Assembly: GCA_903847405.1 (NCBI GenBank)
Contig: CAINDP010000091.1
Location: 789 to 64,788 of the forward strand
Direction of reading: 5' to 3'
Source: an uncultured Myxococcales bacterium
GTDB taxonomy: Bacteria > Myxococcota_A > UBA9042 > DTJE01
Length of the DNA: 64,000 bases
Part shown: positions 27,274-62,978 of the stretch, one piece after another
Position numbering within the stretch: the stretch's first letter is position 1
Layout of the letters: every line of letters begins with the position of its first letter
The notes under the pieces: model-generated
Told to the model about the DNA's origin: nothing
The model's input: the letters and a program-made list of their open reading frames with translations, nothing else
The model's database searches: none
Program-made: the position numbers and the translations under genes

Positions 27274-27285
27274 GCCTCAACCTCC

Positions 27286-28875: not shown

Positions 28876-28883
28876 CGCTGCCC

Positions 28884-30206: not shown

Positions 30207-30215
30207 GAGGTCCTC

Positions 30216-30560: not shown

Positions 30561-30571
30561 CGCTCCCACCT

Positions 30572-30868
30572 CTACTTGCCGCCCTTCTTGTCGACCTTGC
30601 CCTTCTTGTCACCGCCGGAATGGCCGTGGAAGGTGCGGGTCGGGGCAAACTCGCCCAGCTTGTGGCCGACCATGTTTTCCGTCACGAAGACGGGGATGAA
30701 CTTCTTGCCGTTATGAACGGCGAAGTTGAATCCAACCATCTCGGGAAGGATCACGGACCGGCGAGACCATGTCTTGATGGTCTTCTTCTGGCCGGACCGC
30801 AAAGATCCTTCGATCTTCTCGATCAGGTGCGTGTCCACGAACGGGCCCTTCTTAACGCTCCGCGGCAT
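30572..30868 (-). CDS. rpsS: 30S ribosomal protein S19
   Basis: [12 protein letters not shown] and [30 protein letters not shown]. Confidence 0.95.
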
Positions 30869-30881
30869 CGGTCCCTCCGTC

Positions 30882-31706
30882 CTACTTCGAGCGCCGCTTG
30901 ACGATCAGGCGGTCGGTGCTCTTGTTGTGACGCGTCTTGTAACCCTTGGTCGGCCGGCCCCAGGGAGTCGTCGGGTGACGTCCACCGGAGGTCTTGCCTT
31001 CGCCACCGCCCATCGGGTGATCGACGGGGTTCATCACGACGCCGCGGCTCTGGGGGCGGATGCCCTTCCAGCGGTTGCGGCCCGCCTTGCCGATCGAAAC
31101 GTTCTCGTGCTCGGGGTTGCTGACGTCACCGATGGTGGCGCGGCACTCCTCCCGAACCTTGCGCAGCTCGCCCGAGGGCAGGCGGAGCAGCGCGTAACCG
31201 GCCTCGCGGGCCATCAACTGCGCGGAGCCGCCGGCGGACCGGACGAGCTGGGCGCCGTGGCCGGGCTTCAGTTCCACACAGTGGATCATCGTGCCCTGCG
31301 GGATCGCGGTCAGGGGAAGCTGGTTGCCCGGGCGGATTTCCGCATGGGCTGCAGCCATCAGGGTGTCACCGACCTTCACTTCGCGAGGGGCGATGATGTA
31401 GCGCTTCTCGCCGTCCACGTAGTTCAGCAGACAGATGCGCGCGCTGCGGTTCGGGTCGTATTCGATTTCCGCCACGACCGCCGGCACGCCGACCTTGTCG
31501 CGCTTGAAATCGATGACACGGAACAGCTTCTTGTGCCCGCCGCCCTTGTGCCTGGAGGTGATCCGGCCGTACGAGTTGTGGCCGACCTTCCGGGTGTTCT
31601 TCGCGACCAGGGAACGCTCGGGGCCGTTCCGCGTGATGTCGGAGAAGTCGTACCCTTCCGCCGAGCGCCGGCCGGCTGAGGTCGGCTTGTACTTGATGAT
31701 GCCCAT
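30882..31706 (-). CDS. rplB: 50S ribosomal protein L2
   Basis: [14 protein letters not shown] and [23 protein letters not shown]. Confidence 0.95.
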
Positions 31707-31733
31707 CGTTCGCGCTCCTTCCTCGCCCCGGTA

Positions 31734-32024
31734 CTACTGGGCCTCGAAGATGTCGATCGTTTCGCCCGCTTTGAGCGTCACGATGGCCTTCTTCCACGTC
31801 GCACGCTTGCCGACGAAACGGCCCATCCGCTTTTCCTTGCCCCGGACGATCTGGGTCCGCACGCCTTCGACGTGGACCTTGAACACCGTGGCAACCGCTT
31901 CCGCGATTTCCTGGCGGTTCGTCGTCACCGGGACCTCGAAGTGGAACGTGTTGCGACGTTCCTTGTCGATGTTGGCCTTCTCGGTGATGAGAGGCCGACG
32001 AATCACGTCGTACGCACTCTTCAT
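31734..32024 (-). CDS. rplW: 50S ribosomal protein L23
   Basis: VIRRPLITEKA...TFHFEV...VFKVHVEGVRT. Confidence 0.95.
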   Translation of the reverse strand: MKSAYDVIRRPLITEKANIDKERRNTFHFEVPVTTNRQEIAEAVATVFKVHVEGVRTQIVRGKEKRMGRFVGKRATWKKAIVTLKAGETIDIFEAQ

Positions 32025-32641
32025 GGCAGCATCGCTCCTTCGATCGCCTCGACGGCGCCCCGGGTCAGGACCAGGTGGTCGTACTTGAGCACGTCGAAGA
32101 GGTTCAACCCCTTCGAGCTCAGGTACTTGGCCGTCGGCACGTTCCGGCAGGACAGGGACAGTTCCCGGTTGGTCACGTCGACCAGCAGGGCCGAACTCAA
32201 CTCGAAGCGGCCGAGGAACTCGACCACCTTCTTCGTCTTGATCGCGTCCATCGCCAGCGTCTCGATGACCAGAAGGTGGCCCTCGCGCATCCGGTCGGAC
32301 AGGGCCGACAGCAGCGCGGCGCGCTTGACCTTCTTCGGTACCTTCATTTCCCAGTCACGGGGCATCGGTCCGAAAACCACGCCGCCGCGACGGTAGGTCG
32401 GCGACCGGCTATCGCCGTGGCGAGAGCGGCCGCTGCCCTTCTGCTTGAGGACCTTGCGGGTCGAGCCGGCAACCTCGTCACGCTTCTTGGTCTTCACGGT
32501 GCCCTGGCGCTTCGACAGCAGCTGGGCCTTGACGACCTCGTGATAGAGGTGCGAGCAGGACTCGGCCGCGAAGACCTCGTCCGACAACGCGATCTCGCCA
32601 ACCTTGCGGCGCGAGATGTCGAAAATTTCCACGTTCGGCAT
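32021..32641 (-). CDS. rplD: 50S ribosomal protein L4
   Basis: KQKGSGRSRHGDSRSPTYRGGGVVFGP. The start lies 17 nt after the rpsJ stop. Confidence 0.95.
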   Translation of the reverse strand: MPNVEIFDISRRKVGEIALSDEVFAAESCSHLYHEVVKAQLLSKRQGTVKTKKRDEVAGSTRKVLKQKGSGRSRHGDSRSPTYRRGGVVFGPMPRDWEMKVPKKVKRAALLSALSDRMREGHLLVIETLAMDAIKTKKVVEFLGRFELSSALLVDVTNRELSLSCRNVPTAKYLSSKGLNLFDVLKYDHLVLTRGAVEAIEGAMLP

Positions 32642-32658
32642 GATTCCCTCGTCCTCGC

Positions 32659-32967
<309 letters not shown>

Positions 32968-32969
32968 GG

Positions 32970-35063
<2,094 letters not shown>

Positions 35064-37404: not shown

Positions 37405-37956
37405 CTAGCCGAGAGCCCGGCCGAGGTCAGCGTGGGGGGCGGGGATGAGTTCGCTGCGCAGCAGGAGCCCGGACTCGACCGCAGCGACGCCGGCGGCCAG
37501 GGCGGCCTCGACCGAATCCTGCTGGCCGGTGAGGGTCACGTAGGCCTTCCCGCCCAGGCCCGTGCCCAGGCGAATCTCGATCAGCGTGACTTCGGCGGCC
37601 TTGCAGGCGGCATCGGCGGCCAGGACCGTGCCTACCACGCTGAAGGTTTCGATGATTCCTACCGCCATCAGGCCCGGAAGCGGCTGGACCGCGGCCATCG
37701 CAGGCAGGACCTGGGGATGGATGTTCGGGATCACCAGGCTGTCCACGAGGTACGCGCCCGCGTAGTGCACGCCCGTCGCCATGGACAGCGCGACCGACTC
37801 CTCGTCGCCCGCGATCAGCACGATGTACTTGCCCGGGCAGACCGTCTGGGAGTGGACGACCCGCACCGCGGCCCGCTTGGCCATGGCGTCGGTCGCCACG
37901 ATCCCGCGGGCGATGCTGGTCAGTTCCAGGAGGCCGATGGCGGTGATGTCGCTCAT
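37405..37956 (-). CDS. pduT: PduT-like tandem-BMC-domain (BMC-T) microcompartment shell protein
   Basis: ATG at 37956. Two BMC domains ([24 protein letters not shown] and [24 protein letters not shown]). TVCPGKY Cys at the PduT Fe-S position. [14 protein letters not shown] and [11 protein letters not shown] match my recollection of Salmonella PduT. Confidence 0.8.
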
Positions 37957-39280
37957 GGGGCCCTCTCGATGCGGATGGAACGATCGTCGACGAAGGACAC
38001 GACGCCGCCGATGGAGGCGTGGAGCCGAGCCCCCAGGGCGCCTGCGGGGATGTCGGCCACCAACTGGCCGCGCACCACGCGATCGCCCTTGCGGACGCAC
38101 GCACGGACGGCGCCCCGACGTGCTGCTTCAGCAGCAGGCGCACCTCCCACGGATCCGGCACCGGCACGATGGCGCCCTCGTGGGGGGGGACGTAGTCCGT
38201 GAGGTTCAGCCGCAGGGCCACGCGGGGCTTGGGCGCCCGGGCCCAGGCCTGGGCCTCCAGGGCCGCCTCGGGACGGTTGCGGTAGGGATTGGGCGTCCTG
38301 GCTGCCCCGACGCGCCCCCGGTACTCGCCCAGGATGTGGCGGGGCGACAGGCCCATCGTGCAGGCGTACACCTCGCACACCCCGCACTGGCTGCACAGGT
38401 AGCCCATCGCCAGGACGTCCGGCGGCACTTCCCACCCGGCCAGGGCCGCCCGCATCGCCAGGTGCGGCCGGATGCGATGGCCCAGCAGCGCCCGCGGGCA
38501 CATGTCGGTGCAGGTGCGGCACTGGCAGCAGGCCGCGGTGGCGCGACGCAGGTGGGTCGCGGTGGAGATCTTCCGGGACGTGACGACCGGGTGGTCCAGG
38601 GGCAGGACCAGGTACCCGGAGGTGGTCTTGGTGACGGGGTGGTCCAGGTCCGGCAACAGCCAGCCCATCATCGGACCGCCCTCGATCACGGCGACGTCGG
38701 CCCGCAGCGCGCCGCCGGCAGCGGCGATCACCTCGGCGGCCGACGTGCCGATGGGCGCCTCGTAGACCCCCGGACGCGCCACTTCGCCGGCGACCGTGAT
38801 GGGACGCGTGATGACCGGCCGGCCGTCCAGCGCGCGCCGGACGTTCAGCAGGGTCGCGACGTTCTGGACGACGACGCCGACTTCCAGGGGGATGCCGCCT
38901 TCGGGGACCACGCGACGCGTGACCTCGTGGACCAGGACGTGCTCGTCGCCGGCGGGGTAGAAGTCGTCCAGCAGGAACAGTTCGACCTCAGGGCCGTCCT
39001 TCAGAAGGGGAAGGACGCGCGAAATCACGGGGTGGTAGTGGCGCTTGACGGCCAGAACACGCCGGCGGGCCCCGACGGCGTCGGCCGCCAGGCGAAGGCC
39101 TTCGAGGATGGCTTCGGCGTGGGCGATCGTCACCCACTGGTCGGTGACCAGGACCGGCTCGCACTCGGCGCCGTTGGCGATGAAGGTGTCGGCACGGGCC
39201 GCCAGCTTGACGTGCGTGGGGAATCCCGCCCCGCCCGCGCCAACGACCCCCGCCTCTCGCACCCGATCTGCCAGCGTCAC
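37953..39280 (-). pseudogene. pduS: PduS-like Fe-S flavoprotein (RnfC/NuoF-like; cobalamin reductase family), reading frame broken near 38101
   Basis: GTG at 39280. Motifs GVVGAGGAGFPTHVKL, ANGAECEPVL, CCQCRTCTDMCP, CSQCGVCEVYAC. The frame runs up to LLLKQHVGAPSV. The conserved C-terminus CVRKGDRVVRGQLVADIPAGALGARLHASIGGVV then continues in another frame and ends in an ATGA overlap with pduT. Confidence 0.75.
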
Positions 39281-39373
39281 GCAACAAGCCCCGTCCGGCC
39301 CCGGGCGCGGAGTGTAGCAGAAGGGGGACGTCCCGTGGTATCGATCCGAGCGTCTGCTGCTGGATGCCCCGCC

Positions 39374-39952
39374 ATGTGGGAATGGTACCTGTCGATCGTC
39401 ACCGAACATCCCTTCGCCGCCGCGGCGGTGCAGTTCGCCCTGCTGGGAACGGTCGGGGAGTTGCTGTCCACGCGCATCCGGGACGGATCCTGGGGCGCGA
39501 TGCTGCACCCCCCCCGCATGGCCCTGAAGGCCATCGGCTGGGCGCTGCTGGGCATCTACGTCAAGGTGATGTTCCTGACCGCGTCGGCCGGCGTGAAGGC
39601 CCTGGCGGACTTCGGGGCGCTGCCCCTGGCGGCGGCGGCCCCGGACGGCACGCTGGAACTGATCCTGGCCGCGTTCGCCGCCTCCGCGCTGATGAACGTC
39701 ATGCTGGGGCCGTCGATGATGGTCCTGCACCGGGGGGCGGACAACGCCATCGACCGGGTGCTGGGCGCCGTCCCGGCGGGCTGGCGAGGCCTGGACAAGG
39801 GCATGCTGACCCTGCTGTGGCTGTGGATCCCGCTGCATACGATCACGTTCACCCAGCCCCGGGAGATCCGGATCGGGATCGCCGCCGTGCTGTCCATGGT
39901 CCTGGGCGTCGTGATGGGATGGACCAACCGGCGGGCGCCCGTCCGCGCTTGA
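39374..39952 (+). CDS. integral membrane protein of unknown function, divergent from pduS
   Basis: ATG at 39374 (MWEWYLSIVTEHPFAAAAVQFALLG...). About 5 hydrophobic segments. GC3-rich frame. 192 aa. Confidence 0.6.
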   Translation: MWEWYLSIVTEHPFAAAAVQFALLGTVGELLSTRIRDGSWGAMLHPPRMALKAIGWALLGIYVKVMFLTASAGVKALADFGALPLAAAAPDGTLELILAAFAASALMNVMLGPSMMVLHRGADNAIDRVLGAVPAGWRGLDKGMLTLLWLWIPLHTITFTQPREIRIGIAAVLSMVLGVVMGWTNRRAPVRA

Positions 39953-50769: not shown

Positions 50770-51330
50770 ATGAAGGGAATCATCTTCAATCTTCTGGAGG
50801 ATTTCATCGTCGAGAACCTGGGCGACGAGGCCCTCGAGGAGATCCTGGCCGGGACCGGGCTGCGGACGACCGAACCCTTCGTGGGCCCCGGCTCCTACCC
50901 CGACGAAGACCTGATGGCCCTGGTCGCCCAGGTGGTGGAACGGATGGGCATCCCGACCGACGAGGCGCTCCGGGCCTTCGGCCGGTTCTGCATCCCGCCG
51001 CTGGTCCGCCGGTTCCCGGGCTTCGTGACCCCGCACTCCCACCCGAAGGATTTCCTACTGACGGTGGACGCCTTCCACAGCACCGAAATCAACAAGCTGT
51101 TCGAGGGAGCGCAATGCCCCAGGTTCCATTACGAGTCGCCGGCGCCCGACCGCCTGATCATGCGGTATGAATCGGAACGCCGCCTGTGCGCCCTGGTCGA
51201 GGGACTGCTGGAGGGCGTGGCAACCCACTTCGACGTTCCGATCCGTCACTCGCAGACGGCCTGCATGCTGCACGGCGACCCGGCGTGCGTCTTCGACCTG
51301 ACCTTCCTCCCGCCACCGGGGACGCCATGA
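50770..51330 (+). CDS. hnoX: H-NOX (heme nitric oxide/oxygen binding) sensor protein
   Basis: [19 protein letters not shown]-terminus, a proximal His candidate in DAFHSTE, and a Y-x-S-x-R motif (MRYESERR). 186 aa. Confidence 0.85.
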
Positions 51331-53855
51331 CGACGTCCGAACTCCTCGAGCAGCGCCTGGCGCGGACCCAGCGCAAGGTCGAAATCCTGGAGGCCCTGAT
51401 CGAGGACCGGACCCGGGACGTCTACCTGGCGCAGCAGGTGCTGCGAGCCAGCGAGGAGATGTTCCGGGGCCTGTTCGAAAGTTCCCGGGACGCCATCATG
51501 ACGCTGGAACCACCGACCTGGGAGTACACGTCGGCGAATCCGGCAACCCTCACGATGTTCGGCGCCCGAACCATCGACGAATTCGTGGCCCTTCAATTGC
51601 GGCAGGTGTCGCCCCTGATCCAGCCGGATGGTCGCGCCTCGGCGGAAAAGGCCGGGGAAATGATCGGCCACGCGATGCGCGAGGGGTTCCACTTCTTCGA
51701 GTGGACGCATCGGCGGATCACCGGCGAGGTGTTTCCGACCACGGTGCTGCTGACCCGTGTGGAACTGGCGGGCAAGCAGTTCCTGCAGGCGACGGTTCGC
51801 GACATCACCGAAAGCAAGCGCGTGGAACAGGAGCTCATCCTGGCCCGCACGGCCGCCGAGGAGGCCAGCCGGGCCAAGAGCGAATTCCTGGCGAACATGA
51901 GCCACGAGATCCGGACGCCCATGAACGGCGTCCTGGGCATGACGGAACTGCTGCTGGACACCCCCCTGTCCCGCGAGCAGGGCGAGTACGCCCGTGCGGT
52001 CAAGTCGTCGGCCGAGGCGCTGCTGGGAGTGATCAACGACATCCTGGACTTTTCGAAGATCGAGGCCCAGCGCATCGACCTGGACCCCATCGATTTCCAC
52101 CTGCGGGACTGCCTGCACGAACTGCTGCAGACCCTGGCGTCCCGGGCCGGCGACAAGGGCCTGGAACTGGCCTTCCACGTCCCGGCCGACGTGCCCGACC
52201 GCGTGGTCGGCGACGCGGGCCGCCTGCGGCAGATCCTGGTGAACCTGGTCGGGAACGCGATCAAGTTCACGGCCCACGGCGAAGTGGTCGTCACCGTGAC
52301 GAAGGAACAGGAGTCCGAGGACGAGGTGTTCCTGCGGTTCGACGTGACCGACACGGGCATCGGCATCCCGGCCGACAAGTTGGGCAAGGTGTTCGAGGCC
52401 TTCTCGCAGGCCGACGCATCGACAACGCGCCGGTATGGCGGCACCGGCCTGGGGCTGACGATCTCCAAGCGCCTCATCGAACTGATGGGTGGGGAGATCG
52501 GGCTGGAAAGCGAAGTCGGGCGCGGCAGCACCTTCCATTTCACCGCCCGGTTCGGACTGCGGGAAGGGCCGGTGCGGCTGTCGATCCCGGCCCGCCTGGA
52601 CAGCCTTCAGGGCCTGCCGGTCCTGGTGGTGGACGACAACGGTACGAACCGGCGCATCCTGTCGGAAATGCTGCGCAACTGGGGCTTCCGGCCCACCGTC
52701 GCCGAGGACGCCGACCGTGCCCTGGAAGCCCTGGCCCAGGCCAACGCCGACGGCGATGCCTTCCGACTGGTGCTGCTGGACGCCAACATGCCGGGCATGG
52801 ACGGGTTCGAACTGGCCGAGCGGATCCGGACGACTCCCGGGGCCGCCCCCTGCCTGATGATGATGCTGACGTCGGCGGGGCGGCGGGGGGACGCGGCCCG
52901 CTGCCGGGAACTGGGAATCGCGGTCTACCTGACCAAGCCCATCTCGCAATCGTCGCTGCTGGACGCGACGATGACCCTGTTCGGCGCCCAGGACGCGGCC
53001 GGGACGGCACCGCCCGCCCTCGTCACCCGTCACTCGCTGCGGGAGGGCCAACGCGCGCTGAAGGTGCTGCTGGCCGAGGACAACGAGGTCAACCAGCGGT
53101 ACGCCAGCCGCCTGCTGGAACGACGCGGCCACGAGGTGGTCGTGGCCTTCGACGGACGGCAGGCGCTGGCCCAACTGGATGCGCCGGCGGCCCGGCCCTT
53201 CGACCTGGTGTTGATGGACGTGCAGATGCCGGAAATGGACGGCTTCGAGGCGACGGCCGCCCTGAGGGCCCGGGAGGCGGGGTCCTCCAGGCACATGCCC
53301 GTGATCGCCCTGACCGCCCACGCGATGAAGGGCGATCGGGAACGTTGCCTGGCCGGGGGTTTCGACGATTACGTGTCCAAGCCGGTCCAGCCCGACGCGC
53401 TGTTCGATGCCATCGATCGCGTTGTCCGCCTCCGACCTGCCGATGGCCCGGAGCCGGCGGGCGTCGTGGCATTGTCGGCCCAATCGCGGTCTTCCCATCC
53501 CGGGGACGATGACGTCCTGGACCGCGCCAGCCTGCTGGCCCGCTTTGACGGCGACGGCGACCTCCTGGCCGAACTGGCGGACCTGTTCCGCGCCAGCGCG
53601 CCGGCCCTGGTGGCCGAGGTCCGGAACGCGGCGGCCCGGGGCGACGCGCCGGGGTTGACCCGGGCCGCACACACCTTGCGGGGCATGGTGGGCAATTTCG
53701 GAGCGCCGCGGGCCGTGGGCCTGGCGCAGGACATCGAAGACCGCGGAAGGGAAGGAAACCTGGCCGATGCGGAAGCCCGGGCCGCGGACCTGGAACGGGC
53801 GGTTTCGCGTCTTGCAGCACGTTTGGAGGCCCTCGTCGCGGAGGTCGTCCCGTGA
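51327..53855 (+). CDS. hybrid sensor histidine kinase (coiled coil-PAS-HisKA-HATPase-REC-REC-Hpt)
   Basis: ATGA overlap with the hnoX stop. H-box [15 protein letters not shown]. HATPase motifs [16 protein letters not shown] and GGTGLGL. Two receiver domains ([24 protein letters not shown]). C-terminal Hpt [12 protein letters not shown]. Confidence 0.9.
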
Positions 53856-54790
53856 AGATCCTCATCGCCGACGACGAAGCCATCTCCCGGAAGATCCTGG
53901 AATCCCGCCTGGGCAAGTGGGGCTATGACGTCGTCGTCGCCACCGACGGCACCGAGGCCTGGAACGCGCTCCAGGGACCCGACGCCCCGAGCCTGGCCAT
54001 CCTGGACTGGGAAATGCCCGGCATGGACGGCGTCGAGGTGTGCCGCCGCCTGCGACAGGTGGACCTCAATCCCCAGGGCCGGGGACCGGAGTTGCAGGCG
54101 CACTACGTGTACGTGATCCTGCTGACGTCGAAGACCCGAGGCGAAGACATGGTGGCGGGGATGGAGGCCGGAGCCGACGACTACGTGGCCAAGCCCTTTG
54201 ACGCAAACGAATTGAAGGTGCGCCTGCGGGCGGGCCGACGCATCCTGGACCTGGTCGCGGAACTGGTCCGGGCCCGGGAACTGCTGGCCGACAAGGCCAC
54301 CCGCGATTCGCTGACCAGCCTGTGGAACCGGGGGGCCATCCTCGAGGCCCTGGAACGCGAGATGGCCCGATCGGATCGCGAGAACGCGCCCCTCGGGATC
54401 CTGATGGCCGACATCGACCTGTTCAAGCGCGTCAACGACACCTTCGGGCACCTGGCGGGGGACGCGGTCCTGCGGGAAACCGCCCGGCGGATGCTGGCGG
54501 CGCGGCGCCCCTACGACGCGGTCGGTCGTTACGGCGGCGAGGAGTTCCTGATCCTGGCCCCCGGATGCGGGATGGAAGCGGCCCGTGGCGTGGGCGAGCG
54601 GATGCGTGCCGCCATCGCCGCCGAACCGATGAACACCGCCGACGGCCTGATCCCGGTGACGATGAGCCTGGGCGCCGCCTGCCGTCCCCCTCGCAGCGGA
54701 GTCACCGCCGAGGCGCTGCTGAGGACCGCCGACGAGGCCCTGTACCGGGCCAAGGCGAACGGCCGCAATCGCGTGGAAGCGGGCGGCTGA
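53852..54790 (+). CDS. response regulator-diguanylate cyclase (REC-GGDEF)
   Basis: [17 protein letters not shown] and [10 protein letters not shown] in the receiver domain. A-site GGEEF with an RPYD (RxxD) I-site five residues upstream. Confidence 0.9.
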
Positions 54791-54872: not shown

Positions 54873-55232
54873 ATGGAGGTCCCGATGCGGAACCTGTCCG
54901 AACTCTTCAAGGCCCTGTCGGATGAAACGCGGCTGCAGATGCTGGCGCTGCTGCTGCGGCGCGGAGAACTGTGCGTCTGCGAGTTCGTCGAGGCCCTGGG
55001 CATCACGCAGTCGAAGGCGTCGCGGCACCTGCGGTACCTGGCCCATGCGGGGCTGGTCCGGGATCGCCGCGAGGCCGTGTGGGTGTACTACCGGGTTCGC
55101 CCGGACCCGGACGCGGACCCGGCGGCCGTGCTGGACGCGATCGGCCCGCTGCTGGCCGGACGCGACCTGGCGGAACTGGAACGGCGCCTGGAGGCATTTT
55201 CGTGCGTGCCGGCAACAAGGAGGGCAGGATGA
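54873..55232 (+). CDS. arsR: ArsR/SmtB-family metalloregulator
   Basis: [28 protein letters not shown] (CVC metalloid site) and a winged [20 protein letters not shown]. Confidence 0.9.
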
Positions 55233-56329
55233 GCGGTGCATCGACCCGGGCGAAGGGCGTCGTCCGGCAGTTGTCGTTCCTGGACCGGTTCCTGACGCTG
55301 TGGATCTTCCTGGCGATGGCCGCGGGCGTGGGCTCGTTCTACGTGTTCCCGGACATCGTGCCGTTCCTGAACCGCTTCAGCGTCGGCACCACGTCCATCC
55401 CGATTGCCGTCGGCCTGATCCTGATGATGTACCCGCCGCTGGCCAAGGTCCGTTACGAGGACATGGGCCCGGTCTTCCGGAACTGGCGGGTGCTGCTGCT
55501 GTCGCTTGTCCAGAACTGGATCGTCGGGCCCATCCTGATGTTCGGGCTGGCCGTGCTGTTCCTGCGGGACCAGCCGGAATACATGGTCGGGCTGATCCTG
55601 ATCGGCCTGGCCCGCTGCATCGCGATGGTCATCGTCTGGAACGACCTGGCGAAGGGCGACAGCGAGTACTGCGCCGGGCTGGTCGCGCTGAATTCCGTGT
55701 TCCAGGTGCTGTTCTACTCGGTCTACGCGTGGGTGTTCATCACCGTGGTGCCCCGGTGGCTGGGCCTGCCGGGAACCGAGGTGAACATCACCATCGGCGA
55801 GATCGCGACGAGCGTCTTCATCTACCTGGGGATTCCGTTCATCGCCGGCATCGTGACGCGCTTCAGCCTGATCGCGTGGAAGGGCAAGGAGTGGTACCAC
55901 GACAGGTTCATCCCGAAGATCAGCCCGATCACCCTGGTCGCCCTGCTGTTCACCATCGTCGTGATGTTCAGCCTGAAGGGCGAAACGATCGTCGAGGTCC
56001 CGCTGGACGTGGTCCGCATCGCGATCCCGCTGCTGATCTACTTCGTCGTGATGTTCCTGGTGTCGTTCTGGATGTCGAAGAGGGTCGGCGCGAATTACGG
56101 CCAGGCGGCGACCCTGTCGTTCACGGCGTCGTCGAACAACTTCGAGCTGGCCATCGCCGTTGCCGTGGCGACGTTCGGGATCAACCACGGCGCGGCTTTC
56201 GCGGCGGTCATCGGGCCGCTGGTCGAGGTCCCGGCGCTGATCGGCCTGGTGAACGTGTCCCTGTGGATCCGGCGCAAGTGGTTCGCAACGGAACCGGTCG
56301 GCGCAGCCGGCCTGGGAGGGAGGGCATGA
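55229..56329 (+). CDS. acr3: ACR3-family arsenite efflux permease
   Basis: ATGA overlap with ars[38 protein letters not shown]. 366 aa, polytopic. Confidence 0.9.
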
Positions 56330-57189
56330 TGGACGACAAGGACGAGGTCCGGAAGAGCGTTTCGGAATTCTATACGCAGGCAGTGAAGGGTGGTTCGTGG
56401 TGCTGCGGCCCGGCGTCATCGGGGTGCTGCGGCAGCGCGGCGGCGCCCGACGTCGTCGCCAAGGGCTTCGCGGCGCAGTTCGCGGGGTACGGCGCCGATA
56501 CGGTCGGCCTGCCGGCGGACGCCGTGGAAAACAGCTTCGGCTGCGGCAACCCGCTGGCCTTCAGCGAAGTGCAGCCCGGCCAGGTGGTCCTGGACCTGGG
56601 CAGCGGCGCGGGGATCGACCTGCTGATCGCCGCCCGCAAGGTGGGCCTGTCCGGCCGCGTGATCGGCGTGGACATGACGGACGAGATGATCGACCGGGCG
56701 CGGGCCAACGCCGACGCCGCGGGCTTCCCGAACATCGAGGTCCGCAAGGGCATCATCGAAAACCTGCCGGTGGAATCGGGCAGCGTGGACTGGGTCATCA
56801 GCAACTGCGTGATCAACCTGTCCCCCGAAAAGGACCGGGTATTCGCCGAGATCGCCCGCGTGCTGAAGCCGGGCGGCCGGATGAGCGTGTCGGACATCGT
56901 GGTCCAGGACGTGCCCGACTGGGTGCGCCAGAGCATGGCCCTGTACGCGTCGTGCGTGGCCGGGGCGGTGTCCGAGGACGAGTACGCGGCCGGCCTGCGC
57001 CGCGCCGGCCTGGCGGACGTCGAGGTCGCCGAGCGGTTCCCCTACGACCTGGAGCAGGTCCGATCGCTGATCGAGTCGGAGGTCCCGGGAGCCATCCTGG
57101 GGTCGATCGACACCCCCGCCCTGGCCGCGGAGGTCGCGGAAAAGGTCTGGAGCGTGAAGTTCCACGCCCGGAAACCCCTGGAGGGTTGA
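56326..57189 (+). CDS. arsM: arsenite S-adenosylmethionine methyltransferase
   Basis: Overlaps the acr3 stop. N-terminal Cys pairs WCCGP...GCCGS. SAM motif [25 protein letters not shown]. Confidence 0.9.
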
Positions 57190-57191
57190 CC

Positions 57192-57653
57192 ATGAACATC
57201 CACCAGGAAGGCTGGATCGCCGAGGCCGACCACCTGCGGGAACGGGCGCCCCGGGGCATCCTGTTCCTGTGCGTCGCCAATTCGGCCCGCAGCCAGATGG
57301 CCGAGGGGATCGCGAGGTCCCTGGCGCCGCAGGGCGTCGAGGTGTTTTCGGCGGGGTCGAACCCGGGGGTGCTGAACCCCCTGGCCGTGCAGGCCCTGGC
57401 CGAAATCGGCATCGACATCTCGGGACATCGCAGCAAGGGGATCCCGGAGGTTCCCGCGGATCGGGTCGACGCGGTCATCACGCTCTGCGCCGAGGAGGTC
57501 TGTCCGGCCTGGCTGGGTCGAGCCCATCGCCTGCACTGGGGGCTGCCGGACCCGGCCGGGGCCGGGGACGACGACGCGGCCCGATTGCAGGCGTTCCGAA
57601 CCGTGCGCGACGAACTGGTGCGACGCCTCGGGCGCCTCTTTGGCGATTCGTGA
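57192..57653 (+). CDS. arsC: arsenate reductase, LMW-PTPase (thioredoxin-coupled) type
   Basis: ILFLCVANSARSQMAEG P-loop (CX5R) and distal Cys residues in TLCAEEVCP. Confidence 0.85.
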   Translation: MNIHQEGWIAEADHLRERAPRGILFLCVANSARSQMAEGIARSLAPQGVEVFSAGSNPGVLNPLAVQALAEIGIDISGHRSKGIPEVPADRVDAVITLCAEEVCPAWLGRAHRLHWGLPDPAGAGDDDAARLQAFRTVRDELVRRLGRLFGDS

Positions 57654-57696
57654 CGGACGGCTGCAGAAACAGGTACGAATACAGAGAGGTCCTGCC

Positions 57697-58209
57697 GTGA
57701 ACCCGAAGACGATCGTGACCATGCTGCTGCTGGCGTTCGTTGCGGCCGCGGCCGGCTTCCTGGTCCTGAAGGAGATGCGCGGGAAGGTCGTCGCGGACCC
57801 GGTGCCTGCCGACGTCGCCTCCGGTTCGACGACCGGTGCGCCCGCTGCGGTCGCCGAGGATCCGTCGGTTCCCCGGAAGCTGGTGGCGTACTACTTCCAC
57901 GGAAACAAGCGCTGCAACACGTGCCGCGCGATCCAGGCGCAATCGAAGGAGGCCCTGGACACGGGCTTCCCCGAGGCCCTGATGGCCGGCCTGCTGGAGT
58001 GGCGCGAGGTGAACCTGGACGACCCCGGCAACGACCACTTCACCACCGACTACGACCTGACCGGCAGCGGCCTGGTCCTGGTGGACCTGCGGAACGGCAG
58101 GCTGGCCCGCTTCAAGAACCTCCTCAAGGTGTGGGACCTCTGGGCGGACAAGCCGGCATTCCTGGACTACGTGCAGGGCGAAACGCGCAACTGGCTGGAG
58201 GCGCCCTGA
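57697..58209 (+). CDS. membrane-anchored thioredoxin-fold protein with CNTC (CxxC) motif
   Basis: GTG at 57697 after AGAGAGG. N-terminal TM TIVTMLLLAFVAAAAGFLVL. LVAYYFHGNKRCNTCRAIQ. Family not recognised. Confidence 0.6.
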   Translation: MNPKTIVTMLLLAFVAAAAGFLVLKEMRGKVVADPVPADVASGSTTGAPAAVAEDPSVPRKLVAYYFHGNKRCNTCRAIQAQSKEALDTGFPEALMAGLLEWREVNLDDPGNDHFTTDYDLTGSGLVLVDLRNGRLARFKNLLKVWDLWADKPAFLDYVQGETRNWLEAP

Positions 58210-58901
58210 TGCCCGAACTGCTGATCGCTTCCCTGTCGGCCTTCTGGCTGGGCGTCCTGACGTCCATCAGTCCGTGCCCCCTGGCCACGAACATCGCCGC
58301 GATCTCCTACGTCGGCCGACGGATGGAAAACCCGCGCCGGGTCCTGCTGGGCGGGCTGGCCTACACGCTGGGCCGCGCCCTCGCCTACGGGGTCCTGGGC
58401 GCCCTGCTGGTGGCCAGCCTGCTGAACGCCCCGGTCCTGTCCCACGTCCTGCAGAAGTACCTCAACCAGGTTCTGGGGCCGTTGCTGGTCGTCATCGGGA
58501 TGTTCCTGCTGGAACTGCTGTCGCTGGGCGGGTCGGGATCGGCGTGGATGGCGCGACTGCAGGAGCGGATGGCGACGCACGGGATCTGGGGCGCCGGGCT
58601 GCTGGGCGTCCTGTTCGCGCTGTCCTTCTGCCCCATCTCGGCGGTGCTGTTCTTCGGGAGCCTGATCCCCCTGGTCGTCGCCAACGAGTCCGGCGTGATG
58701 CTGCCCATGATCTACGGCCTGGGCACCGGCGTTCCGGTCCTGGCCCTGGCCGTGATCATCGCGCTGGGCACGAAGTCGCTGGGTGCGACCTTCCGGAAGA
58801 TGACCTCCTTCGAGAAGTGGGCGCGCCGGGCCACGGGCGTCATCTTCATCGTGGTAGGCATCTACCTGACGCTGGTCTACGTCTTCGGCGTGTTGTCCTG
58901 A
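58209..58901 (+). CDS. CcdA/DsbD-beta-like transmembrane thiol-disulfide electron transporter
   Basis: The start overlaps the previous stop. Two membrane-embedded Cys-Pro motifs (SISPCPLATN and LSFCPISAV). 230 aa with about 6 TM segments. Confidence 0.75.
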   Translation: MPELLIASLSAFWLGVLTSISPCPLATNIAAISYVGRRMENPRRVLLGGLAYTLGRALAYGVLGALLVASLLNAPVLSHVLQKYLNQVLGPLLVVIGMFLLELLSLGGSGSAWMARLQERMATHGIWGAGLLGVLFALSFCPISAVLFFGSLIPLVVANESGVMLPMIYGLGTGVPVLALAVIIALGTKSLGATFRKMTSFEKWARRATGVIFIVVGIYLTLVYVFGVLS

Positions 58902-58902
58902 C

Positions 58903-58928
58903 GGAAAATGGGGACAGACACCATTTCC
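58903..58928. repeat. solo copy of the 23-nt hairpin repeat
   Basis: GGAAAATGGGGACAGACACCATTTCC. Positions 58906-58928 (AAATGGGGACAGACACCATTTCC) are identical to 13565-13587. The copy fills the 30-nt gap between the convergent stops at 58901 and 58932. Confidence 0.75.
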
Positions 58929-58931
58929 GAT

Positions 58932-59180
58932 TCAGCCTTCCCTTGCGGCCTCGTTGATCCAGGCCACCATCTCGGATAGGGCGGGAACGCGCCCGGCGGC
59001 CTTCACCTGGCCGTCGATCACCAGCGCGGGGGTCATCAGCACGTCGTACTTCAGGATCTCGGTGATGTCTCCGACGTACTCGACCGTGAGGCCCAGGCCG
59101 GCCTGCTCGACGGCCTTCTGCGCGTCCTCGTGCAGCTTCTTGCAGCGGGCACACCCGCCGCCCAGCACCTTGATTTCCAT
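58932..59180 (-). CDS. small thioredoxin-fold protein (redox-active disulfide protein 2 / Thioredoxin_3-like)
   Basis: ATG at 59180 after GAAGGAGGG. MEIKVLGGGCARCKKL (CxxC) and TPALVIDGQVK. 82 aa. Confidence 0.8.
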   Translation of the reverse strand: MEIKVLGGGCARCKKLHEDAQKAVEQAGLGLTVEYVGDITEILKYDVLMTPALVIDGQVKAAGRVPALSEMVAWINEAAREG

Positions 59181-59194
59181 CTCGCGGCCCTCCT

Positions 59195-59644
59195 TCAATC
59201 GATCGTGATCTCCGGCTCGATCACGACCTCGGACTTCACCGAGTTCGCGACCAGGCTGTACTTGCGGGCTGCCGCCAGAGCCTTCGTGACGCGCGCCTCG
59301 ATCACGGCGCGCGGCTCGCCACCGGCGTCGATGCGGATCAGCGGCTTCAGGTGCACCTTCGTGAACGTCTCGGTCCGGTCCAGTTCGATCACCTTCGTGC
59401 CCTCGGCGCGGCATTCGAAGGACACCAGGTTCAACTTGAAGCGCTGGCAGGCCCACAGGAACATCATCATCACGCAGGTGTTCACGGAGGCCACGAAGGC
59501 GTCCTCGGGCGTGAAGACCCCGGGATGACCCTGGGCGTCCGGCGGCGCCGAAAAGGGCATTTCGGGACCGTTGCCCATCGCGAGGTGCCCCCAGTGCTCG
59601 CCGGTCCAGCGGACCGTCGTGTGGTACGTTGCGGTGCGGCTCAT
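59195..59644 (-). CDS. OsmC/Ohr-family protein (atypical Cys arrangement)
   Basis: ATG at 59644. TPEDAFVASVNTCVMMMF and KYSLVANSVKSEV. 149 aa. ATGA overlap with the upstream gene. Confidence 0.75.
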   Translation of the reverse strand: MSRTATYHTTVRWTGEHWGHLAMGNGPEMPFSAPPDAQGHPGVFTPEDAFVASVNTCVMMMFLWACQRFKLNLVSFECRAEGTKVIELDRTETFTKVHLKPLIRIDAGGEPRAVIEARVTKALAAARKYSLVANSVKSEVVIEPEITID

Positions 59645-60063
59645 CGTGCGCCCTCCCGGCCCAGGACCTGGTCCACCAGTCCCGCCAGTTCGTCCGCCAC
59701 GGCCTCGACCGCCCGTTGCCCGGCGTCGTTCAGGCGGCGGCATCCCGCAACCCCGGTGATTCCACGCGCGGCGGCCAGTTCGGTGACGACCAGGCTGGCG
59801 GCCGGCCTGGCCGAGTACCGTTCGGTCGCCCGTGCGGCGCACCGCAGTTCGCAACCGTCCACCGTGATGGTCGGAAAGTCGCGCGCGAACGTCCGCTCGC
59901 CCTCGCCGCCCGCCAGGAACAGCGGCAGGCACAGCGTGACCGTGTCGCCTCGCCGCGTATCGTGCAGCACCCTCAACGCCGCCAGGCGCGTGACCGTGCC
60001 CTCGGCCAGTTCCTCCCCCGAACACGCGATGATCCCGGCCTTCCGTTCCGGGCTGTCAGACAT
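59641..60063 (-). CDS. DGC-domain putative metal-binding Cys protein (copy 2)
   Basis: GIIACSGE and ITVDGCELRCA motifs. 140 aa. Confidence 0.7.
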   Translation of the reverse strand: MSDSPERKAGIIACSGEELAEGTVTRLAALRVLHDTRRGDTVTLCLPLFLAGGEGERTFARDFPTITVDGCELRCAARATERYSARPAASLVVTELAAARGITGVAGCRRLNDAGQRAVEAVADELAGLVDQVLGREGAR

Positions 60064-60475
60064 GGTCGTCCTCCCCTGCGGCCCCGGCGGTCAGCGCGTC
60101 GATTTCCGGCAACAATTCCTCGGCCAGCACGCGGGCCAGCCGAACCCCCTCCGGGTTCAATTCGGCGATGCCCTCGGGCTTCAGATCCTTGTGCTGCCGG
60201 AAGACCTCCAGCACCGCCACCTCGCGGACGATCGTGCCCCCGCTCTCCTGCACGCACTTCGCGGCGCAGTTCAACTTGCAGCCGTCGATGGTGATGACCG
60301 GGTGGGCCGCGACGATCGCCCGGGATTCCGCATCCCCCAGCACCAGTTTCGACAGGGCGACCAGGCGCGTCGCGTGGGGCCGCAGGTCCTCGACCAGGTC
60401 GTACGCCGCCTCCCGGGCCACGGTCCCGAAGGGCTTCCCGATGCCGCTGCACGGAACGATGACCACCTTGCGCAT
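60056..60475 (-). CDS. DGC-domain putative metal-binding Cys protein (copy 1)
   Basis: ATG at 60475. VIVPCSGIGK and ITIDGCKLNCAAKC motifs. 139 aa. 8-nt overlap with copy 2. Confidence 0.7.
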   Translation of the reverse strand: MRKVVIVPCSGIGKPFGTVAREAAYDLVEDLRPHATRLVALSKLVLGDAESRAIVAAHPVITIDGCKLNCAAKCVQESGGTIVREVAVLEVFRQHKDLKPEGIAELNPEGVRLARVLAEELLPEIDALTAGAAGEDDHV

Positions 60476-60483
60476 ACCGTCCT

Positions 60484-60945
60484 TCACAGCGCATCCACCT
60501 CCGCCTCGGCCTGTTCCTTCATGTGGGCAAAGTAGGCGTCCGGGTCCAGCAGGCGCGACTGCTGTGCCGCGCCGTCGGTGACCATGATTTCCGCCAGCCA
60601 ACCTTCGCCATACGGATCCTGGTTGATGATTTCCGGCGCCGTCCCAAGGGCGGGGTTGGTGGCGACGACGACGCCCGCGATCGGCGACACCAGTTGCAGG
60701 GTCGCCTTGATCGTTTCAATCGTGCCGGCCTCGTCCCCCGCCTTCAGTTCCGTCCCGGCCGGCATCATGTCGGCGAAGGCCACGTCGCCGCTGTGCTGCT
60801 GCAGGTAGTCGGTCACGCCGATGCGAACCCGCCCTTCCGCGGTGCCGGGCAGCCACATCACCCAGACGCCTTCCGGGCTGAAGACGCGGTCCGTCGGCAC
60901 CCGGAACGTGAACTTGTCGACCGTGACCTGCAGGATGTCCGGCAT
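60484..60945 (-). CDS. glycine-cleavage H-protein-like lipoyl carrier (no gcvP/gcvT nearby)
   Basis: IGVTDYLQQHSGDVAFADMMPAG, GTIETIKATLQLVSPIAGVVVATN (lipoyl-Lys context) and NQDPYGEGWL. 153 aa. Confidence 0.8.
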   Translation of the reverse strand: MPDILQVTVDKFTFRVPTDRVFSPEGVWVMWLPGTAEGRVRIGVTDYLQQHSGDVAFADMMPAGTELKAGDEAGTIETIKATLQLVSPIAGVVVATNPALGTAPEIINQDPYGEGWLAEIMVTDGAAQQSRLLDPDAYFAHMKEQAEAEVDAL

Positions 60946-60963
60946 CGTCGCCCCCCGTGGGCC

Positions 60964-61257
60964 CTAGAGGGCCTTGTCCTTCAGCACCTGGGTCGCGCAC
61001 GCGAAGAAGTTCATCACGCAGGGGGTCATCAGCCGGTAGAACACCGTGGTCCCCGCGCGGCGATCGTCCACGATGCCGCTGGCCCGCAGCACGGACAGGT
61101 GCTTCGACACGGTGGAGGCGTCCAGTCCGACCAGGGCCACCAGTTCCCCCGCGCTGCACTCGCCCCGCGCCAAGCGGTCCACCATCATCAGGCGGGCCTC
61201 GTTGGCCAGTGCCTTCAGGACCCGTGCCTGCCTGCGGAACACGTCCCGATCGTCCAT
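60964..61257 (-). CDS. ArsR/SmtB-family transcriptional regulator (second copy)
   Basis: LKALANEARLMMVDRLARGECSAGELVALVGLDASTVSKHLSVLRASGIV. 97 aa. Confidence 0.85.
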   Translation of the reverse strand: MDDRDVFRRQARVLKALANEARLMMVDRLARGECSAGELVALVGLDASTVSKHLSVLRASGIVDDRRAGTTVFYRLMTPCVMNFFACATQVLKDKAL

Positions 61258-61278
61258 GCAATCCTCCGGCCGGCAGTA

Positions 61279-61307
61279 ACGCTAGGACTATTTTGCCAAG
61301 TTTGCAA
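61279..61307 (-). promoter_or_regulatory. candidate promoter of the ArsR2-led operon, overlapping direct repeats
   Basis: On the minus strand: TTGCAA (61307-61302), a 17-nt spacer, then TAGCGT (61284-61279). It sits in an AT-enriched patch carrying the units TTTGCCAAG / TTTGCAAG / TTTGAAG. Confidence 0.3.
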
Positions 61308-61337
61308 GTTTGAAGACCCGGGGGGATGCGGATCGGT

Positions 61338-62978
61338 TCAGGGCACCGGTTCGACCACAACCTCGGCGAAATCGGCATGTCCCGCGCCGGCCGCCGCGGA
61401 CGCCGCCGCGAACAGCCCGACACGAGCCCCGATCCACCGTCCCATCGACGCGGGAAAGTCTTCCGTGTCGGCCGGTGTGAACGCGACGCCATCGACGCTG
61501 AACCCGAACCGGCACAGGCCGCCCTCCCGGACGGAAACGCGCAGGCGGATCGGCCGGTCCGCGGCGCCCTCGGGCAGGGCGACGGCGGTTTCCCCCTGGG
61601 GCAGGCCCAGCAGGCCGCCACGGCCATCGGCCAGAACCAGCGTGACGACACCGTCGATCCGCTGGAGGCCCAGCCAGGCGTAGTCGTACCCGAAAACGAT
61701 CAGGCCGGCGCTCTCCCCCTCGGCCAGGCCGGTCCCGTCGATGGTCGTCGTGACGGAAAACACCTCGGCGGGGAACTTCTGCAGCAGCAGGGACGGCGCG
61801 TCATACAGGTTGCCGGGGTTGGGTTCGGGCTGCGCGAACAGCCGCAGCCGGCCCGGGGCGTCCGCCAGGGAGTACCAGGCGGGTTCGGGGTTGGCCTGCC
61901 ACTGCCACTGGAGTCCCAGGTCGGGCGCGTCGAACGCGTCGCTGGTCGGCGGCGTCGCGTCGGGCTGCCCGGGCAGGTCCGGCCGGCGATGCGCCAGGAC
62001 CGGCTGGCCCGTGCCGTCGCCGTCGGGATCCTCGCCGATCACCGGCCAGTCGTCCTTCCAGACCACCGGTTCCAGGTGCACGACGCGCCCGTAGACGCCC
62101 TTGTCCTGGAAGTGCAGGAACCAGAACTCGCCCGACGGGGTGTCCACCAGCGCGCCCTGGTGCGGGCCGTTGACGTCGGTCGCGCCCTGGTCCAGCACGA
62201 TGCGTCCCTCGTAGGGCCCCCGGATGTCCCGCGCCCGGAACACCGACTGCCAGCCGTACGTCACGCCGCCGGCCGGGGCGAAGACGTAGGTCCAGCCGTC
62301 GCGCCGGTAGACCTTCGGCCCCTCCAGCGTGGAGGTGCCGGGCAGCGCGTCGCCGTCGATCAGAACGCCCAGATCCTCCGCGACGCCTGTGCCGTCGGCG
62401 GTCAACCGGAGCAGCGTCAGCACGTTGTCGATGCCCGAAAAGCTCCTGGCCCAGGCGTGGACCAGGTACACGCTGCCGTCCTCGTCCCAGAAGGGGCAGG
62501 GATCAATCAGGCCCTTTCCGCCCTTCACCAGGATGGGCGCGCTCCAGGGCCCCCGGGGATCCGTCGCCGTGATGACGTACAGGCCGGTGTCCGGGTCGGG
62601 GTAGTAGATCCAGAACCGGTCGGCGTGATGACGGATGGAGGGCGCCCAGACGCCCTTGCCGTGCTGGGGTGTCCGGTGGGCGTCCTCCGGGACCAGCCGG
62701 GGCAATGCGTGGGCGACCAGGCTCCAGTTCACGAGGTCCCGGGAATGGAGGATGGGCAGGCCGGGCACCTGGCTGAAACTGGACGAGGTCATCCAGAAGT
62801 CGTCGCCCACCCGCACCGCGTCCGGGTCCGAGTAGTCGGCGTGCAGGATCGGGTTGACGTAGGTGCCGTCGCCCGGGTCGGGGACCGTACCGGCGCAGCC
62901 CAGCGCGGCGCCCAGGACCACGAAGAACGCGATCAGGCACGCGGCGGTCCACCGGGCGGCACGGGGCGCGTCGCTCAT
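61338..62978 (-). CDS. glycoside hydrolase family 43 (beta-xylosidase/arabinofuranosidase-like) lipoprotein with C-terminal beta-sandwich domain
   Basis: ATG at 62978. Signal CLIAFFVVLGAALGC. NPILHADYSDPDAVRVGDDFWMTSSSF, KGVWAPSI, GLIDPCPFWDEDG, TLEGPKVY. Confidence 0.85.
   Translation of the reverse strand: MSDAPRAARWTAACLIAFFVVLGAALGCAGTVPDPGDGTYVNPILHADYSDPDAVRVGDDFWMTSSSFSQVPGLPILHSRDLVNWSLVAHALPRLVPEDAHRTPQHGKGVWAPSIRHHADRFWIYYPDPDTGLYVITATDPRGPWSAPILVKGGKGLIDPCPFWDEDGSVYLVHAWARSFSGIDNVLTLLRLTADGTGVAEDLGVLIDGDALPGTSTLEGPKVYRRDGWTYVFAPAGGVTYGWQSVFRARDIRGPYEGRIVLDQGATDVNGPHQGALVDTPSGEFWFLHFQDKGVYGRVVHLEPVVWKDDWPVIGEDPDGDGTGQPVLAHRRPDLPGQPDATPPTSDAFDAPDLGLQWQWQANPEPAWYSLADAPGRLRLFAQPEPNPGNLYDAPSLLLQKFPAEVFSVTTTIDGTGLAEGESAGLIVFGYDYAWLGLQRIDGVVTLVLADGRGGLLGLPQGETAVALPEGAADRPIRLRVSVREGGLCRFGFSVDGVAFTPADTEDFPASMGRWIGARVGLFAAASAAAGAGHADFAEVVVEPVP

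Follow-up and report, generated by a model that had tools for sequence, protein, structure and literature searches.

In the hydrogenosomes of Trichomonas, an OsmC protein is described to detoxify peroxides with electrons that are supplied from lipoate through orphan L and H proteins (as summarized in PMC7946386 and in PMC5384416, both citing Nyvltova et al. 2016). Lipoylated proteins are known reductants of the Ohr/OsmC family. The hallmark of this family is a pair of Cys residues about 60 residues apart in combination with an Arg and a Glu residue (PMC5384416). Furthermore, a homologue of GcvH (the H protein of glycine cleavage), called LbpA, is indispensable for sHdr sulfur oxidation (PMC10332631). 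Here, we describe six tightly packed genes on the minus strand at 58932-61257 of a 64-kb stretch of DNA from an uncultured Myxococcales bacterium (contig CAINDP010000091.1; the whole stretch is hereafter called the window), which encode in this order an ArsR repressor, a GcvH-like (H-like) protein, two DGC proteins (DGC1 and DGC2), an OsmC-like protein, and a Thioredoxin_3 protein. The four genes in the middle, which we call the cassette, recur together near arsenic resistance (ars) genes in other genomes, and we consider with a probability of roughly 45% that they encode an arsenic-induced relay of lipoyl dithiols ending at the OsmC-like protein, in which the DGC proteins would bind arsenic or a metal.

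The open reading frame (ORF) listing, complemented by profile searches, exactly reproduces the arrangement that a sequence-only reading of the window had described, namely six co-directional genes with gaps of 18, 8, -8, -4, and 14 nt. All of the six products pass the Pfam gathering scores of their respective families (HTH_5, GCV_H, DGC for both DGC1 and DGC2, OsmC, and Thioredoxin_3), so that the domain assignments made in that reading stand. Also, the motifs quoted there were all found in the ORFs: ETIKATLQL in the H-like protein, CSG and DGCxxxC in both DGC proteins, NTC, WAC, and KYSLVANSV in the OsmC-like protein, and GCARC in the Thioredoxin_3 protein. DGC1 has an alternative start, GTG at 60487, which would give a protein of 143 aa and a 4-nt overlap with the H-like gene; this start is the choice of gene callers, and the 4-nt overlap is typical of most relatives. 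In the 80-nt leader at 61258-61337, we noticed that CAAACTTG is present twice in tandem, together with an imperfect palindrome, TTGCAAACTTGGCAA, and these elements are a candidate operator or promoter of the operon; scans of 58800-61500 for the sigma-70 promoter consensus and for terminators gave no match. We read the six genes as a single ArsR-controlled operon, the core of which is a conserved accessory cassette of ars gene clusters.

Conservation of the cassette was examined by scanning 185,579 species-representative genomes with two peptide patterns specific to this clade, which gave 426 loci; the best 80 of these were used for the neighbourhood analyses, and gene presence was counted in the 74 of the 80 loci that have enough downstream sequence. 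When the proteins of the window were used as queries of tblastn, all of the GcvH-like, DGC1, DGC2, and OsmC-like proteins were present in 73 of the 74 testable loci. Since the same four core genes are found in so many loci of other genomes, the arrangement is far beyond chance, and the co-occurrence of GcvH-like, DGC, and OsmC genes across phyla, which the sequence-only reading had proposed as a check, is borne out. The order of the genes is constant with a single permuted locus (L062), and neighbouring genes of the cassette overlap by 4, 8, and 4 nt in most loci, which suggests translational coupling. According to the record titles, the best 80 loci are from Chloroflexota (46 loci), Acidobacteriota including Aminicenantes (20 loci), Verrucomicrobiota (5 loci), Myxococcota (3 loci), Binatia (2 loci), Planctomycetota (2 loci), and unclassified "Deltaproteobacteria" (2 loci), and the carriers of the cassette span at least five phyla. 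Every one of these 80 loci is listed as belonging to a metagenome-assembled genome or an uncultured-organism assembly; no cultured isolate is named among them, which may be the reason that the cassette has so far escaped notice. In the lists of the 120 best-scoring homologues of each protein, the most conserved component is the OsmC-like protein, with an identity of 74-93% to that of the window, and the corresponding ranges of DGC2 and the H-like protein are 66-90% and 54-71%, respectively. A search of 72,556 plasmids gave no match for DGC2 and a single distant one, with 31% identity, for the OsmC-like protein. Broken ORFs for DGC or OsmC-like proteins were seen in four loci (L045, L067, L076, and L088), and selenocysteine at a conserved Cys position was considered for them but rejected, because the breaks are frameshifts and not in-frame TGA codons; the frameshifted cassette genes are possibly assembly errors instead of pseudogenes.

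No NCBIfam model is matched above its cutoff by any of the four core proteins, DGC1 and DGC2 matching no model at all, and surveys of arsenic genes with known markers will therefore miss these conserved components. No description of a GcvH-like-DGC1-DGC2-OsmC-like cassette was found in full-text searches of the literature or among curated models, and the cassette is apparently undescribed. It would represent a lipoyl-to-OsmC relay that has been recruited into ars operons together with two new partner proteins, and its new features would be the obligatory DGC pair and the arsenic context.

In terms of genomic context, the neighbour families were obtained by clustering all ORFs around the 80 cassettes with no prior assumptions, and ars neighbours were counted within 8 kb of the cassette in the 74 loci. 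ArsR is near the cassette in 70/74 loci, an ArsE-family Trx_3 protein in 66/74, Acr3 in 41/74, ArsC in 32/74, ArsM in 12/74, and ArsA in 7/74, and any core ars gene (Acr3, ArsC, ArsM, ArsA, or ArsD) in 46/74. Co-located in this way with ArsR and with core ars genes across genomes, the cassette qualifies as a component of ars operons. Indeed, precomputed Pfam gene tables give operons such as ArsR-Acr3-[cassette]-ArsD-ArsA-ArsC, ArsR-Acr3-ArsC-[cassette]-methyltransferase, and ArsR-[cassette]-Trx_3-Acr3; in relatives, the cassette thus lies within or beside groups of ars genes, in agreement with the association that had been proposed for the window. Furthermore, when aligned with 45 cassette-adjacent ArsR proteins, the ArsR of the window turned out to differ from the majority: most ArsR proteins encoded just upstream of cassettes have a CVC motif, the classical As(III)-binding site. 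The window ArsR has no CVC but the Cys pattern ECS...TPC-x6-C, i.e., one Cys in helix 3 and a C-terminal PC-x6-C pair, which it shares with a minority of the cassette-linked ArsR proteins (L021, L034, L054, L055, and L062); it may respond to an effector other than As(III). Control by a metalloid- or redox-sensing ArsR, as earlier proposed, is supported by the relatives, where ArsR adjoins the cassette and mostly has CVC.

The H-like protein retains the lipoyl-lysine, K80, in an ETIK motif; this residue is invariant in 29 homologues and aligns with the lipoyl Lys of E. coli GcvH. Directly upstream of the H-like gene, a gene for dihydrolipoyl dehydrogenase (called E3 or Lpd; a product of ~475 aa) was found in 13 of the 80 loci, which belong to Acidobacteriota, Chloroflexota, and Verrucomicrobiota, and the family of this product matches the equivalog model TIGR01350 with 489 bits (cutoff 408.8). 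No other finding speaks as strongly as this upstream gene for the proposal that the H-like protein shuttles between dithiol and disulfide as a carrier, with NAD(P)H driving the cycle. The idea of a lipoyl relay, already put forward in the sequence-only reading, thereby gains from the 13 loci and from the invariant K80, but the window itself has no E3: Pfam scans of its non-ribosomal ORFs found none of gcvT, gcvP, lpd, and lipA (the lack of gcvT and gcvP having been correctly pointed out before), and a tblastn search of the window with a cassette-linked Lpd was also negative. The sole BPL_LplA_LipB protein of the window (14433-15203) was considered as a lipoate ligase and rejected; because its gene is positioned between coaX (type III pantothenate kinase) and nadC (quinolinate phosphoribosyltransferase), it is most likely a biotin ligase.

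Several other families recur around the cassette in relatives and are not encoded in the window. A radical SAM/SPASM maturase-like protein of ~420 aa was found in 18 of the 80 loci, with its gene directly upstream of the H-like gene in L013, L030, L039, L050, L065, L078, L087, and L088 and downstream in L041, L042, and L044. The best NCBIfam match of this protein is "tungsten cofactor oxidoreductase radical SAM maturase" with 296 bits (cutoff 380), and it might modify a protein of the cassette. Also, PF04060 ("putative Fe-S cluster") proteins are present in 15 loci and AhpD/CMD-family proteins in 8 loci, with an ArsD-CMD fusion in L004; L048 4569-5111 and L030 11864-12256 are examples from these two families. 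The recurrence of the PF04060 and AhpD/CMD proteins points to a larger uncharacterised set of thiol or Fe-S redox genes that is tied to ars.

As to the OsmC-like protein, its model (pLDDT 79.9) matched 2d7v, 2onf, and 1qwi in Foldseek at a probability of 1.00, and the protein is closest to the structures of the uncharacterised family members 2d7v and 2onf. Two Cys residues are invariant in 70 homologues, namely C57 in NTC and C78 in FEC. The sequence-only reading had drawn attention to Cys residues in NTC and WAC contexts; both motifs are present, but it is only the former Cys that is conserved, and the second invariant Cys is C78, not that of WAC. C57 is at the peroxidatic position, and in alignments it coincides with the Cys on helix 1 of 2d7v, 2onf, and 1vla. 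Ten residues before C57, E47 (TPED) is invariant as well, and R12, which is near the position of the Ohr Arg, is nearly invariant. Judging from these residues, the OsmC-like protein would keep a part, but not all, of the peroxidase site.

DGC1 and DGC2 are both above the PF08859 cutoff of 27 (bit scores are given in Table 1) and are paralogues of each other (hhalign probability 99%). Three Cys residues are invariant in DGC1 (C9, C66, and C70 in 73 sequences) and four in DGC2 (C14, C45, C71, and C75 in 75 sequences), the second of the latter corresponding to Ala40 in DGC1; the PF08859 domain is described with four conserved Cys residues including the DGC motif. In most relatives (e.g., L010, L012, and L016), DGC2 is ~240 aa long with a C-terminal extension of ~95 aa that contains a CSCGSG motif and has no Pfam or NCBIfam match, and the copy in the window is short. 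The extension is also encoded by a standalone small gene in 7 loci (e.g., L019 7733-8092 and L036 9203-9604), which is not present in the window. An AlphaFold model of the long DGC2 (pLDDT 81.6) has alternating strands and helices, which we read as a parallel alpha/beta (flavodoxin-like) domain, and the invariant DGC Cys residues are located in this model directly after strands 1-3, at the start of the next helix. When the model was compared with the PDB by Foldseek, no significant match was found (best E = 0.036). A DsrE/TusD-like fold, which had been considered, was hence dropped; the top matches were lumazine synthase, PTS IIB, low-molecular-weight phosphatases, and response-regulator receiver domains. 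Kinship of DGC with ArsC of the low-molecular-weight protein tyrosine phosphatase (LMW-PTP) type was also rejected, with an hhalign probability of 0.2%, and a sequence search of the PDB with DGC1 gave chance matches only.

In the relay that we favour, electrons would be transferred from NAD(P)H to dihydrolipoyl dehydrogenase, which is encoded upstream of the cassette in some genomes and would be the housekeeping E3 in the case of the window, then to the lipoyl arm that the H-like protein would carry on K80, and from this arm to the C57/C78 centre of the OsmC-like protein. The OsmC-like protein would be the terminal reductase, and its substrate may be either a hydroperoxide-type oxidant generated in arsenic stress or an oxidised arsenical. 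The Cys3 cluster of DGC1 and the Cys4 cluster of DGC2 would bind As(III) or a metal; by binding arsenic, they could prevent arsenite from capping the dithiol arm or could pass arsenic towards efflux. The gene content, its conservation, the linkage to ars, the adjacency of Lpd, and the conserved residues are observed; lipoylation of the H-like protein, the direction of the electron flow, the substrate, and the role of DGC we infer from gene context, conserved residues, and precedent. The skeleton from NAD(P)H through E3 and the H-like lipoyl arm to the OsmC-like protein is the best-supported part of the relay.

Several points nonetheless weigh against the relay. No gene for E3 or for lipoylation is found in the 64-kb window, and the module can thus not be called self-contained, as it had been at the outset. 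Within 8 kb of the cassette, 28 of the 74 loci are without any core ars gene, having just ArsR and/or Trx_3 or ArsF/ArsG-family genes. In the OsmC-like protein, the canonical resolving position is occupied by Ser (S130 in 97% of sequences), where 2d7v has Cys, so that the usual C-terminal Cys is absent, just as the sequence-only reading had supposed; also, the loop that leads from strand 3 to helix 1, the site of the catalytic Arg of OsmC, has no conserved Arg. Because of the replaced resolving Cys and the lack of a conserved Arg, a peroxidase activity of the OsmC-like protein is uncertain. Many of the host lineages are, in addition, presumed to be anaerobic, and why they should have to defend themselves against peroxides is less obvious. 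As for DGC, its role in the relay is a conjecture, and the binding of zinc, which Pfam suggests for this domain, is equally conjectural.

Among the alternatives, protein-bound lipoate might handle arsenic directly: the H-like arm would capture As(III) or an organoarsenical, and DGC1/DGC2 and the OsmC-like protein would process the captured arsenic, either by unloading it from poisoned lipoyl groups or by reducing or de-thiolating pentavalent or thiolated arsenicals. We regard this as unlikely, albeit worth keeping in mind, and it would constitute the first arsenic pathway that is built on the very cofactor targeted by arsenite. A further alternative dispenses with redox catalysis, the lipoyl arm and the DGC sites acting as a sink or chaperone that chelates As(III) or methylarsenite to spare essential lipoyl enzymes and hands it over to Acr3/ArsA in an ArsD-like manner, with E3 serving only to keep the arm reduced. 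Arsenite classically attacks dihydrolipoyl groups at their vicinal dithiol, ArsR, ArsD, and ArsM bind As(III) at Cys3 sites, and DGC1 has exactly three invariant Cys residues; moreover, Acr3 adjoins the cassette in 41/74 loci, and ArsD/ArsA do in some. A sink without catalysis, however, leaves unexplained the OsmC-like protein, the most conserved component, with its peroxidatic-type Cys and its Glu, and being stoichiometric it would be costlier than efflux; we consider it rather improbable. Still more doubtful in our opinion is a lipoyl-driven transformation of arsenicals, in which the OsmC-like protein and/or DGC would reduce arsenate, methylarsonate, or aromatic arsenicals or would cleave the As-S bond of thioarsenicals, E3 and the H-like protein being a dedicated pair of reductants, much as genes for thioredoxin reductase and thioredoxin occur in some ars clusters. 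The strict ars linkage of the cassette would fit with such a role, as would the presence of ArsM and ArsE/F/G in the same operon as the cassette in some loci (L010, L022, and L062), the frequent occurrence of the thiol-redox proteins AhpD/CMD and Trx_3 in the same islands, and the chemistry by which dithiols reduce pentavalent arsenicals. We know of no precedent, however, for an arsenical reductase with an OsmC fold or a DGC domain; an arsenate reductase would be redundant in the 32/74 loci with ArsC, and ArsM is near the cassette in only 12/74.

Two other explanations place arsenic in the background. If the H-like protein carried sulfane sulfur, the cassette would serve sulfur or persulfide trafficking akin to sHdr-LbpA, with a secondary linkage to arsenic. 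Beside the precedent of LbpA (PMC10332631), the window ArsR weakly resembles the sulfite sensor BigR (59 bits; cutoff 155), and a TauE-like exporter is encoded in 9 of the 80 loci. Among the annotated frequent neighbour families, however, none was recognised as sHdr, sLpl(AB), or LipS1/LipS2-like; the radical SAM protein in the neighbourhood best matches SPASM-type maturases, CVC is present in most of the adjacent ArsR proteins, and the DGC2 model has no significant match to a solved structure, all of which renders sulfur trafficking very improbable. We give next to no credence to the possibility that the H-like protein is simply the housekeeping H protein of glycine cleavage with unrelated neighbours. 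It does keep the lipoyl lysine and is ~40% identical to canonical GcvH, the alignments with matches of canonical length (127-133 aa) starting only at about residue 15 of the H-like query, but its scores are below both NCBIfam gcvH cutoffs (107.8 vs 117 for NF002270 and 91.7 vs 115.85 for TIGR00527). The proteins of ~150 aa to which it belongs make up a compact clade, with 17 clusters at E<=1e-30 among 1.84 billion 50%-identity representatives and with a subfamily-specific N-terminal motif, VDKFTFRVxTDR. Furthermore, this clade adjoins DGC and OsmC-like genes in 73/74 testable loci, and of the 40 neighbour families that recur most often in the 80 loci, none was recognised as gcvT- or gcvP-like.

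As the sequence-only reading had noted, the operon converges on an ars operon. This plus-strand operon, arsR-acr3-arsM-arsC-arsF-arsG, ends 30 nt away (Table 1). The protein that had been labelled "CcdA" in that reading is instead an ArsG-family permease, and the "mini-thioredoxin", correctly seen as a Thioredoxin_3 protein with CxxC (GCARC), can be specified further as a member of the ArsE family (MTH895/ArsE family of TIGR00412). This assignment of the last gene agrees with its profile score above the cutoff, with its CxxC, and with the ArsF/ArsG partners 30 nt off. The ArsE/F/G set for nitroaromatic arsenicals is thus split in the window (57640-59180), arsE ending the minus-strand operon and arsF-arsG ending the plus-strand operon, and in the relatives L010 and L062, ArsE, ArsF, and ArsG are encoded consecutively behind the cassette on the same strand in a single operon. 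Organic-arsenical resistance is assigned to ArsE and ArsF, and efflux transport to ArsG, in the account given by PMC9144182 (citing Chen, Zhang and Rosen 2019). From this arrangement, the ArsE-family last gene may belong functionally with the convergent arsF-arsG, and its product, the ArsE-type thioredoxin, probably acts together with theirs. The hairpin in the gap between the two operons is weak (-13.2 kcal/mol, z = -1.76).

Table 1. Positions in the window of the cassette operon, its leader, the converging ars operon, and the gap between the two operons.
Feature	Position	Strand	Evidence
Leader, 80 nt, from the GH43 gene (upstream) to arsR	61258-61337	-	sequence reading
ArsR/SmtB-family repressor, 97 aa, first operon gene	60964-61257	-	NF033788 84 bits (cutoff 55), PF01022
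GcvH-like lipoyl carrier, 153 aa	60484-60945	-	PF01597 96 bits
DGC1, 139 aa from ATG	60056-60475	-	PF08859 56.4 bits
DGC2, 140 aa, short form	59641-60063	-	PF08859 62.1 bits
OsmC-family protein, 149 aa	59195-59644	-	PF02566 46.9 bits
ArsE-family CxxC mini-thioredoxin, 82 aa, last operon gene	58932-59180	-	TIGR00412 97.5 bits (cutoff 62), PF13192 84.8 bits
Gap of 30 nt between the converging operons, hairpin CGGAAAATGG...CCATTTCCG	58902-58931	.	folding
ArsG-family permease, 230 aa	58209-58901	+	NF040495 289.9 bits (cutoff 200)
ArsF-family protein, 189 aa from TTG (gene callers: 170 aa)	57640-58209	+	NF040494 94.9 bits (cutoff 60)
arsC, LMW-PTP type	57192-57653	+	arsC model 107 bits, below cutoff; PF01451 LMWPc
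arsM (arsenite methyltransferase)	56326-57189	+	289.8 bits (cutoff 263)
acr3	55229-56329	+	453.5 bits (cutoff 282.8)
arsR, CVC type, convergent ars operon	54873-55232	+	

Elsewhere in the window, a hybrid histidine kinase (PAS, HisKA, HATPase, two receiver stretches, and Hpt) and a receiver-GGDEF protein are encoded at 51186-54790, directly upstream of the plus-strand ars operon. At 19852-35063, the translated N-termini suggest a cluster of ribosomal-protein genes with secY, rpoA, and the gene for EF-G, in which case the window would be core chromosome and not a mobile island. A fusion protein of a TatD nuclease and a radical SAM domain (462 aa) is encoded at 4013-5401, and an ORF of 723 aa at 37781-39952 has no Pfam match and unusual GC contents of 0.80 / 0.55 / 0.80 at the three codon positions; it may not be a real gene.

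Arsenite owes its classical toxicity to the capping of the lipoic acid dithiol on key enzymes of metabolism. That a lipoyl-carrier cassette recurs in ars clusters of bacteria that live in soil, sediment, and freshwater and belong to at least five phyla suggests a defence that is built on the chemistry of the same dithiol. If this is true, the cassette would represent a new set of genes for arsenic resistance or transformation in groups such as Anaerolineae and Acidobacteriota, which are common in arsenic-cycling environments. A first function would also be provided for the DGC domain (PF08859) and for a poorly characterised subgroup of OsmC, and the lipoyl-to-OsmC relay of Trichomonas hydrogenosomes would be extended to bacteria.

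In comparison with known systems, the OsmC-like protein resembles the bacterial Ohr/OsmC peroxidases (PMC5384416) in the fold of its model, in the Cys at the peroxidatic position, and in the Glu ten residues upstream, but instead of a pair of Cys residues ~60 residues apart it has the invariant C78 located 21 residues past C57. With the ars accessory genes ArsEFG, the locus in the window shares ArsE-, ArsF-, and ArsG-family genes that are ArsR-regulated and lie beside acr3, arsM, and arsC; the ars determinants listed in PMC9144182, in contrast, do not include GcvH-like, DGC, and OsmC-like genes. Like LbpA of the sHdr system (PMC10332631) and GcvH-L of S. aureus (PMC12440151), the H-like protein of the cassette would be a GcvH paralogue that has left glycine cleavage for a role in redox or stress. 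Its partner proteins are different, and no sHdr or dedicated lipoate-assembly genes were recognised among the annotated frequent neighbour families. GcvH-L, for its part, is accompanied by sirtuin/macrodomain partners.

A close likeness is to the L protein, H protein, and OsmC of Trichomonas vaginalis, in which, as far as the accounts cited at the beginning describe it, an orphan H protein without T and P proteins, a dihydrolipoyl dehydrogenase, and an atypical OsmC pass electrons from NADH via lipoate to OsmC. Unlike the Trichomonas system, the cassette always has two DGC genes between the H-like and the OsmC-like genes, the canonical resolving Cys is gone from its OsmC-like protein, and it is under the control of ArsR within ars operons, the window having no E3 gene. 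At the level of genes, nevertheless, the Trichomonas-type trio of Lpd, H-like protein, and OsmC-like protein is found as such in 13 relatives of the cassette.

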